64,000 nucleotides of DNA from Eledone cirrhosa (lineage: Eukaryota), in contig OZ024741.1 in the NCBI GenBank assembly GCA_964016885.1, forward strand, positions 89,156,001-89,220,000, in the 5' to 3' direction. The notes below the pieces were generated by a model. That model worked only from the letters and a program-made list of their open reading frames with translations, was not told the origin of the DNA and did not search any database. The position numbers were made by a program, and so were the translations under genes. How positions within the stretch are numbered: the first letter of the stretch is position 1; the number at the start of each line of letters is the position of its first letter. Of this stretch, positions 26,424-28,919 are shown one piece after another.

Positions 26424-26950
26424 AAAATAAAGTTAAATAAAAGTCAAATGATTAAAATTTAGCTTCGTTTATTACTGCTATATATATTTCAGTGACAGCC
26501 ATCTTTGGCTGTGACCTCTTCAGGCAGTTTGAATTAGTATGCTATAGACAAGTACATATGTTGTTTAGGTGTATGATATTGTCAATACTCTGATATGCCC
26601 AGTTCCTTGTTGGGTTGTTAATTCACTGGGGATGACTCCAGTTCCCCAGTGAATTAACAACCCAACAAGGAACTGGGCATATCAGAGTATTGACAATATT
26701 ATACACCTAAACAACATATGTACTTGTCTATACCATACCAATTCAAACTGCCTGAAGAGGTCACAGCCAAAGATGGCTGTCACTGAAATATATATAGCAG
26801 TAATAAACGAAGCTAAATTTTAATCATTTGACTTTTATTTAACTTTATTTTACACTACTCCGGAGTAACCAAACCAACCTGCGCACTTCGTCGAGTGCTC
26901 CAGCCTGCATACTGAGGTGTTGGTATACAACCAACATAAACTCAAAATCT
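26424..26950. mobile_element. Non-autonomous foldback derivative of the Penelope element at 57700-63637
   Basis: ~205-bp arms 26424-26631 / 26644-26851 plus ~100-bp extension to 26950. Sequence nearly identical to 63420-63637 and 61916-62070. Confidence 0.92.
26747..26801 (+). ncRNA. Minimal type I hammerhead ribozyme (antisense copy 26474-26528)
   Basis: ACTGC-CTGAAGA-G-GTCACAGCCA AAGA TGGCTGTCAC-T-GAAA-TATATA-TA-GCAGT, followed by AATAAA. Confidence 0.92.
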
Positions 26951-28919
26951 CTCTCTCTCTCTCTATATATATATATATATACATACATATATATATATAT
27001 ATATATATATATATATATATATATATATATATATATATATATATATATATATATATATATACATATATATATATAATATATATATATATATATACATATA
27101 TATATATAATATATATATATATATACATACATATATATAATATATATATATATACATACATATATATATATATATATATATACATACATATATATATATA
27201 TATATATATATATATATATATATATACATACATATATATATATATATATATATATACATATATATATATATATATATATATATATATATATATATATATA
27301 CATATATATGTATGTATATATATATAGAGATATATATGTATGTATATATATATATATGTATGTATATATATATATATATATGTATGTATATATATATATA
27401 TATATATATATGTATGTATGTATGTATATATATATATATATATATATATATATATATATGTGTATATATATATATATATATATATATATATATATATATA
27501 TATATATATATATATATATATGTATGTATATATATATATATATATATATATATATATATATATATATATATATATATAAACATATATAAAGAGAGAAAGA
27601 TAAATATAGATAAATATGGATATATGTATATTTATATATATGTCTGTGCGTGTTCGTGTATATATATATATATATATATATATATATATATATATATATA
27701 TATATATATATGTGTGTGTGTGTGTGTGTGTGTGTGTACATGAACACACACATTAACCATTTAGTTAAAACTACAGTGCTTCTAAATGAAATCAATCTAA
27801 TTTTGACACTTGTAGAAAATATGCGAGGCAATGAATATTTAAAAAAAACTGAGGAGCAAAATAGAGACTTTCTTTATGAATTCCTATTATTCATTAATTT
27901 ATGTGTGTGTGTGTGTGTGTGTGTGTGTGTGTGTGTGTGTGTGTGTGTGTGTGTGTGTGTGTGTGTGTGTGTGTATGTGTGTGTATGTGTGTGTGTGTGT
28001 GCGTGCGTGTGTGTGTGTGTGTGTGTGTGTGTGTGTGTGTGTGTGTTTTCTTCTCTTCTTTCTCTTTAATACGTTTCTTTTGTGTGAAATCATGTTAGTG
28101 TTGGTCAGATGATTTGTTTCTTAGAGGTGTTACAAAGTTCATTGGTATATTATTAGTTTATTATATTGGTGGATTTTGATATAAAATAGAACTTCCTTGT
28201 GACTCTATGAAGTAAATCTTATGGAAGATGAGTTTAGCTCCTTTTGAAAACAAAAGGCATTGATTTCTAAAATAGATTTCTTTGATTAGGGCATGAGAAT
28301 GAAAAAAAAAAGGAAAAAGAAAAGGAAAAGGGAGATAATAAAAAGGTAAGCAATTGAAGGATCTCAGCGTGGAGATGCACATGAATGAATAACTATTTTG
28401 CATAGTTGTTAACAAAAGCATTAATTTATGAATGTGATATAAATATGTGTGTGTGTGTGTGTGTGTTTGTTTGTGTATATACATGTAAATATGATATATA
28501 TATATATATATGTACGTATGTATGTATATAAGCAGACAGACACACACACACAGAGATATACATGTATGTGCGTTCAGTCTCTCCTCTTTCATTGTTTCTC
28601 TCCCTCTCTCCGTATTTGCACAAATAGAAACAGATACCTACATTTAGTTATTTGTTTTTACACGCATACACCTATTCACACTCACACGCAAACAATCTCT
28701 CTCTCTCTCTCTCTCTCTCTCTCTCTCTCTCTCTCTCTCTCTCTCTCTCTCTCTCTTTCTCTCTCTCTCTCTCTCGGATTTATTTGGTCTGTATGATTAA
28801 TAATCGTAATAACACATTGTGCTTCCAATTATCTTGTCAAGACAAAACTAAGTAGATATCTCCATTTATAAATCTGTGCCTCTCTATGTATATATTTACA
28901 TGTGCATGTGTGTGTAGGT

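Follow-up and report, generated by a model that had tools for sequence, protein, structure and literature searches.

Insertions of Penelope-like elements (PLEs) that encode an endonuclease (EN+) are described as carrying an inverted pLTR and a 'tail' on one side only (Arkhipova et al. 2013, PMC3846280; Craig et al. 2021, PMC8557442), and reviews, in their accessible parts, call both the tandem and inverted structures and the one-sided tail unexplained. Among PLEs with a C-terminal endonuclease, the Hydra clade is marked, according to the available description, by RWK and DKT motifs, a CxCX5C motif and insertion into (TA)n (Craig et al. 2021, PMC8557442), and the same source gives PLE reverse transcriptases (RTs) as the closest relatives of telomerase RTs. 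A literature search for twin priming in PLEs returned no paper on the subject by title. In LINE-1 twin priming, reportedly described by Ostertag and Kazazian in 2001, the arms correspond to neighbouring stretches of a single RNA that do not overlap, and the second start lies at variable internal sites; CR1-type LINEs carry 3' microsatellite tails, and telomerase adds repeats.

The window analysed here, a stretch of 64,000 nucleotides from Eledone cirrhosa (contig OZ024741.1, positions 89,156,001 to 89,220,000), holds two insertions of one Penelope family. As far as the published descriptions of EN+ PLEs are available, the family resembles them in its partial tandem (pLTR) with an adjacent inverted 5'-truncated copy, in the extension at the 3' end of just one inverted repeat, in palindromes at the inverted junction, in insertion into (TA)n and in a hammerhead motif within the pLTR, and it differs in the length of the tail, which is 98 nt here as against 30-40 bp (31 bp in the rotifer example). 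The layout with one short-type and one long-type end per insertion, called S and L below, is what has been published for PLE insertions as a "tail present at only one end".

The coding capacity points to a PLE. A 561-aa reading frame at 59964..61649 on the minus strand contains the YRDD motif and DKT, a variant of the PLE DKG motif, and RWK lies upstream in the same frame, past an in-frame stop. The database search with this frame returned 35 homologues, down to E 2.7e-107, of which the named ones are cephalopod and misnamed; PF26215 is annotated on the homologues, and a Pfam search with the RT frame and two homologues gave no RT family match. The endonuclease (EN) frame at 59215..59754, located 3' of the RT on the same strand and in a different frame, matches Pfam GIY-YIG at E 8.5e-4 with 20 bits, slightly below the curated 22.6, and carries LVYG..LYIG..R..H motifs and a Zn-finger-like linker; a PDB sequence search with the RT and EN frames yielded nothing relevant. 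The motifs MRWKAF (RWK), ADKTNN (DKT) and CNCRNPESC (CxCX5C, in the linker before GIY-YIG), together with the C-terminal endonuclease, (TA)n insertion and hammerhead motif, agree with the Hydra clade as far as its description is accessible, which gives a length generally under 3 kb, unlike the unit of about 4.2 kb measured here from ATCTAGC to AAAATCT with a secondary insert excluded. On these motifs the family is classed as a C-terminal-endonuclease PLE with Hydra-clade marks, inserted in (TA)n. The window's full-length copy is defective, to judge from its reading frames, because a stop separates the RT frame from the N-terminal RWK region with which it is in frame, and the EN is encoded in a different frame from the RT.

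We number positions from the S end, where 0 is the last A of ..AACTTTATTTTA; the L end at +98 is the last T of ..AAACTCAAAATCT, the tail spans +1..+98, and sense denotes the strand carrying the RT and EN frames. S and L form the outer ends of both window insertions and lie 98 nt apart, close to the roughly 100 nt of the original prediction, whose cited end sequences and internal read-through were all found in place. The 26-kb insertion is an inverted repeat with arms at 26423-26632 and 26643-26852 that are 99% complementary. Its S arm (26423..26632, minus strand) is a 5'-truncated copy of about -209..0 of the pLTR, the 3' end of which (reverse complement AACTTTATTTT at 26424-26434, preceded by (TA)n) abuts (TA)n at 26423/26424. 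The L arm (26634..26950, plus strand) covers -218..+98 and alone includes the tail (26853..26950, plus strand); it ends with AAACTCAAAATCT at 26950, followed by (CT)n and then (TA)n, the run being (CT)8 at 26949..26964 on the plus strand if the element's own terminal CT is counted.

The large locus has the opposite orientation, with L on the left at 57.7 kb, where S is on the left at 26 kb. Its L end, the reverse complement of AAACTCAAAATCT from 57701, comprises the last 22 nt of the tail (+77..+98, 57701..57722, minus strand) with (TA)n(AG)13 in front, the (AG)13 occupying 57677-57702 on the plus strand, and about 135 nt of the 3' pLTR (-57..+76) are absent where this piece meets the body of the full-length copy (57723..61911, minus strand). 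A partial pLTR upstream of the body (61912..62071, minus strand, -57..+98) runs through the tail straight into it, reading AAAATCTATCTAGC (reverse complement at 61905-61925), i.e., AAAATCT|ATCTAGC. With an overlap of 4 nt (62068-62071), this pLTR meets an inverted 5'-truncated copy (62068..63638, plus strand), the last ~1570 nt of the element, which ends at S as ..AACTTTATTTTA|(TA)n, with aactttatttt at 63627-63637 and then atat. The same arrangement of pLTR and inverted copy occurs at L041/L092 and L053/L091. An unrelated, very abundant repeat of ~195 bp lies inside the body at 58684-58877; neither the inverted copy nor two other full-length copies have it, so it is a later insertion. The flanks of the two window insertions have in common only a dispersed 384-bp repeat, found also at 427-809 and elsewhere. 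The two insertions are independent of each other, and derivation of the 26-kb element from the 57-63 kb locus, which had been named as a possible refutation of the prediction, is rejected.

The end points are fixed far beyond the window. An exact 20-mer of the L end has 2134 matches in the genome (2 for the reversed control), and a 26-mer of the S end plus TATAT has 1620 (control 0); after each exact-pattern search, the first 30 loci along contig 1 were examined. The long arm as query had 51 matches in the species' own genome, and among the 30 loci listed, the arms are 76-100% identical and run up to (TA)n with their last matched query position at 315-317 (L) or 215-219 (S). S and L are therefore fixed in more than 1600 copies, far beyond chance, and the proposal that two fixed ends are reused in independent insertions holds both in these genome-wide matches and in the identical ends of subfamilies at 76-100% identity; the variable end points that would have spoken against it were not seen.

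The layout is not peculiar to one family, since a second family in the window also combines an S-type end with tailed partner arms. It forms two head-to-head pairs at 34960..36122, with S-type ends at 34960 and 35865, in each of which the other arm bears an extra tail. The predicted common arm end of the 34959 and 35862 pair was found at these two places as ATTGTTATAYTTGGG after TA. The tail of the second copy is about 45 nt long and ends as ..AAACTAAT|(AT)n at 36122; a (CT)15 run of the first copy, at 35435, lies about 40 nt from the likely L end and so is not counted below in support of (CT)n at L.

Upstream of S, a motif scan detected CUGAAGA..(Y)GAAA on the sense strand at -100, which is part of a putative PLE-type type-I hammerhead at 26747..26801 (plus strand; ACUGC / CUGAAGA / long helix II / UGAAA / (UA)4 / GCAGU), with a mirror copy in the S arm at about 26474-26528 (minus strand). 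Helix I would be formed by ACUGC/GCAGU and helix II by 9-10 bp, in front of which stands an extra base after position 9, a palindromic (UA)4 takes the position of helix III, and the predicted cleavage falls at 26796|26797 (-56|-55), about 55 nt upstream of S. The core is kept in 46/60 distinct copies and the whole pattern in 32/60, and the predicted motif matches PLE hammerheads as described in the available text of PMC4209133. Rfam reported no hammerhead or other ribozyme in the whole window at the gathering threshold, and at E up to 10 it gave no ribozyme in 61500-63700 and 26400-26970, where only hairpin artefacts scored as miRNAs. Because the 5' end of the upstream pLTR lies at most 2 nt from the predicted cut and the 3' end of the body falls in the (UA)4 run just before it, the window's large copy probably came from hammerhead-processed RNA.

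The 98-nt tail between the two ends is the most conserved non-coding segment of the family, a property that goes beyond the published EN+ PLEs. Across 16 L arms of different subfamilies, the mean pairwise identity is 0.90 in the tail against 0.67 upstream, the tail alignment contains no indels, and in locus L030 the tail is attached to unrelated upstream sequence at an unchanged border, for which reasons the tail, as judged from this conservation, behaves as a constrained module. Its single-sequence fold is unremarkable (z -1.8), and RNAalifold on 19 tails found compensatory changes in 0/19 predicted pairs, the tail being too conserved to show covariation. A predicted hairpin at +61..+92 (-16.4 kcal/mol) ends in CUCA and is followed by 6 nt to the L end, which reads ..AAAAT(A/T)T in older subfamilies. 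A weak hairpin with a 6-nt spacer also precedes S, at -2.6 versus -16.4 kcal/mol at L, and by eye it is not kept in older subfamilies. The first base of HDV-like ribozymes is usually G and the first tail base is C, which speaks against such a ribozyme in the tail.

Each insertion as a rule combines one S with one L end. In loci L001-L090, head-to-head pairs were scored by script, excluding sequence duplicates and centre gaps outside -40..+60 nt, and the 42 distinct pairs comprise 35 S+L, one S+S (L011), one apparent L+L (L042) and five ambiguous cases, in which a BLAST alignment broke in a diverged subfamily or the partner arm had no 3' end. The published one-tail rule is thereby quantified as 35:1:1. 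The 28 independent loci ascertained through L have an S partner in about 18 (17 plus L035, whose very short S arm was detected only in the S-ascertained search) and an L partner in one; seven L arms are apparently solo, some with partner stubs of 8-33 nt, and three to four loci are complex. Among 30 loci ascertained through S, an L partner is present in 21 and an S partner in none; five to six are seemingly solo, one of these with a 10-nt L arm, and three run off the locus. The exceptions to the rule are the S+S pair, the apparent L+L pair and four to five of the 30 S arms, which are apparently solo.

The rule predicts the second end of long copies as well. At L041 and L053, where the inverted copy ends in L, the full-length copy ends in S, and two long S arms of 2.9 and 2.1 kb both face an L arm; follow-ups of long arms at L104, L105 and L108 found no end. 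One S and one L are present in each of the five long copies, among them the window's own locus. The arms measure anything from 22 nt up to the full length, the longer of the two can be S or L, and the tail can be carried by the full-length copy or by the inverted one. The pairing fits one start point per target strand, as had been proposed.

The proposal that micro-homology with the target (TTTA; ATCT) sets the two ends did not hold. At either end, a (TA)n primer could pair with no more than 1-2 nt, and the best (TA)n match is the element's own (UA)4 run at -63..-56, which is directly joined to a long TA tract in only five cases genome-wide, against 1620 for S. Since the best-matching internal site is used so rarely, micro-homology does not choose the ends and is excluded as their cause, a point on which the family again extends the published EN+ PLEs.

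The reading to which we would give about even chances is that reverse transcription starts from both nicked ends of the (TA)n target on the RNA of a single RNP, at the 3' (L) and the 5' (S) border of the tail. The tail would be an RNA module bound by the element's reverse transcriptase, with cDNA of the L arm starting at the 3' border of the bound module. As one RNP, probably with one RNA, offers a single true 3' border, the second target end would have to start its cDNA just upstream of the module, giving the S arm, and priming by both target ends at the two tail borders would explain the presence of one L and one S per insertion. Joining of the two cDNAs would follow at short stretches of homology, in many cases palindromes. 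Such a process would be like LINE-1 twin priming in that both target DNA ends prime and an inverted 5' part is joined at micro-homology, and unlike it in that the arms overlap in most pairs (by up to 216 nt, with non-overlapping arms in eight pairs only) and both starts are fixed to the nucleotide. Divergence within pairs is 3.9% against 8.5% between loci, which is compatible with either one RNA or one source locus, and in a search with the 317-nt arm, no RNA run was listed as containing the sequence.

A run of (CT)n is often attached to the tail end, which adds to the published picture of EN+ PLEs. Among 43 young L ends adjoining the target, the number of CT units after AAAAT is zero in 13, one in 16 and 2-36 in 14; three further young L ends are internal junctions and stand outside this count. 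CT follows S in 0/52 S ends, of which 30 came from the search that included TATAT, leaving about 22 as an unbiased sample. Without exception, the runs lie beside L and keep the phase of the terminal CT, none reads (AG)n, and their length is graded from 0 to 36 units. This specificity, phase and gradation favour repeated copying of the terminal CU in a telomerase-like slip, with a 1-nt realignment on UCU, over a pre-existing target, and lend indirect support to the slippage by reverse transcriptase that had been predicted. A short terminal template unit would be recopied at the start of synthesis as in CR1-type LINEs and telomerase, although for the PLE this is read from the specificity, phase and graded length of (CT)n only.

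That the runs were not made at insertion, and instead stem from a pre-existing (TA)n(CT)n(TA)n target or were inherited via read-through transcripts annealing to (TA)n, is possible but in our view doubtful. The window has eight tracts of complex sequence followed by (CT)n(TA)n, six of them away from the family, so that such compound tracts are frequent next to the ends of other repeats too, and ATCT or TCT is interspersed in the TA flank of L054 and L005, as either route would allow. Among the window tracts, however, there is no (TA)n(CT)n(TA)n that lacks a bordering repeat end, the confinement to L and the constant phase would be unaccounted for, and inheritance fits poorly with the graded lengths and with the finding that the (CT)n copies have no substitution in common that would set them apart (min p 0.53, low power). 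The original prediction had suggested a comparison with empty sites. The contigs that four runs gave over 57200-64000 were short, with none reaching across the locus, and the left flank 57150-57625, used to look for a second allele or haplotig, matched only the window itself at high identity.

Fold-back synthesis, in which cDNA started at L folds at a palindrome and the second arm stops or is cut at the tail border, appears unlikely as an account of the paired arms. For PLEs, the accessible text of Arkhipova et al. (2013, PMC3846280) suggests self-priming and that of Craig et al. (2021, PMC8557442) 'EN-mediated resolution'. Many insertions are near-perfect palindromes with both arms cut at nearly the same point (e.g., -37/-38, -213/-213, -236/-236, -340/-341), often at short palindromes such as the element's own TCATATGA near -221, and fold-back explains equal cut points more simply than two independent cDNAs do; it would also suit the young pairs with no differences over >200 nt and the partner arms of just 8-33 nt without any 3' end (L079, L032). 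On the other hand, in eight pairs the L arm begins in or at the edge of the tail (-1, +8, +21, +38, +53, +53, +56, +57), and the S arm, spanning up to -221..0, contains up to 221 nt absent from its L partner. In these pairs the S arm was templated on its own and is not a fold-back copy, so snap-back is rejected as the sole mechanism. Neither fold-back nor trimming by EN explains why the stop should fall precisely on the tail border, or affect just one side. Arms cut at an equal point fit a switch from the RNA onto the other cDNA, and also fold-back copying; under priming by both target ends, joining at short homologies or palindromes would explain why there are so many of them.

We regard as less likely still that two RNA species exist, one with its 3' end at S through processing or termination and one reading through to L, each used from its true end. 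An AATAAA at -50..-45, about 45-50 nt upstream of S, is conserved across subfamilies, and the hammerhead motif suggests that the RNA is probably processed; yet an A-run follows S in none of the 52 S ends, by which S is also rejected as a poly(A) site, and no ribozyme match was obtained at S in the Rfam search even at E up to 10. Independent draws of two RNAs would moreover give many S+S and L+L pairs, in contrast to the one of each beside 35 S+L. Of the young arms, 18/47 begin at -227..-212, which is likely the 5' end of a short template of ~320 nt. That the ~530-bp palindromes are small non-autonomous elements copied whole, with S as the 5' end of the unit, is highly improbable: it could draw on this clustering and on the arm starts -223/-223 common to L047, L088 and L089, but the junctions differ in all 18 loci examined, which indicates that each pair was built anew, arms are of any length from 22 nt upwards, either can be the longer, and the S/L rule extends to copies of 1.5-4 kb.

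The feature is real and well supported, and its value lies in the quantitative limits that it sets on the mechanism of Penelope integration. New here are the conservation of the tail, the PLE-type hammerhead upstream of S, the lack of a role for micro-homology, and the finding that S arms are not fold-back copies. The integration of PLEs is still undefined, and the family constrains any model of it, which has to account for two starts exact to the nucleotide, each used once per insertion regardless of which arm is longer, for a conserved module that separates them and for independently templated arms, and has to do so without choosing the starts by homology to (TA)n. With its thousands of ends and arms up to 100% identical, the family is very abundant and very young, and would lend itself well to an in vitro system; through its (CT)n runs, nature itself offers a test of whether a PLE RT slips as telomerase does. 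In its fullest form, which we put forward tentatively and consider rather less probable than its failure, our reading is that one RNP holds the RNA by the 98-nt module, both target ends start cDNA at the borders of that module, and the RT recopies the terminal CU into new (CT)n, while in older subfamilies ending in AU, it would produce (TA)n indistinguishable from the target. If this is true, Penelope elements would be makers, and not only users, of the microsatellites in which they live.

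The full-length copy of the large Penelope-like locus (57701-63638) carries within it a repeat of ~195 bp at 58684-58877, which neither the inverted copy nor two further full-length copies contain. Relatives of this repeat occur at about 10 further places in the window, and contig depth across it reaches the millions in contigs of sequencing runs. A SINE-like element of very high abundance is the likely identity of the repeat. Each arm of the large inverted repeat contains, antisense to the Penelope-like element, an open frame of 105 aa, the two copies being identical (58969-59286, plus strand; 62224-62541, minus strand). 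The frame, which has an internal imperfect direct repeat of ~90 nt, probably does not represent a gene. Beyond the short 3' end (S, pLTR position 0) of this locus, the TA tract directly adjoins a further, perfect-looking inverted repeat at 63706-63900, which includes ataattatttcatttaccaaaggtttcaggaagacagacg and its complement and may be two head-to-head copies from yet another family.

The 98-nt tail lying beyond S also occurs at another genomic locus (L030:2930-3091), where the tail and the last ~7 nt before S are fused to unrelated upstream sequence. This locus may belong to a different family, or may be a chimera with the same 3' module. At 38150-38780, (CT)n(TA)n...(TA)n(AG)n separates two copies of a sequence with caaaggtttattagtttcacg in inverted, facing orientation, and comparable tracts, in which a repeat end is followed by (CT)n(TA)n, lie at 4235, 24861 and 33183-33222. 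Such (CT)n runs adjoining repeat ends may be general in the Eledone cirrhosa genome. A dispersed 384-bp repeat ending in ctggctaataaagaaatatatctatctatct is present at 427-809, 24963-25345 and 56714-57094, with copies 96-97% identical to one another; its final ~75 nt are tandemly duplicated at 25277-25421.

Among 47 young arms, 18 start at pLTR -227..-212 irrespective of the partner arm; in the window this position corresponds to 26634-26640 (TTCATATGACTCCAG). We consider it likely that a transcription start or a strong stop lies here and sets a pLTR-only template of ~320 nt, the form to which most copies belong.
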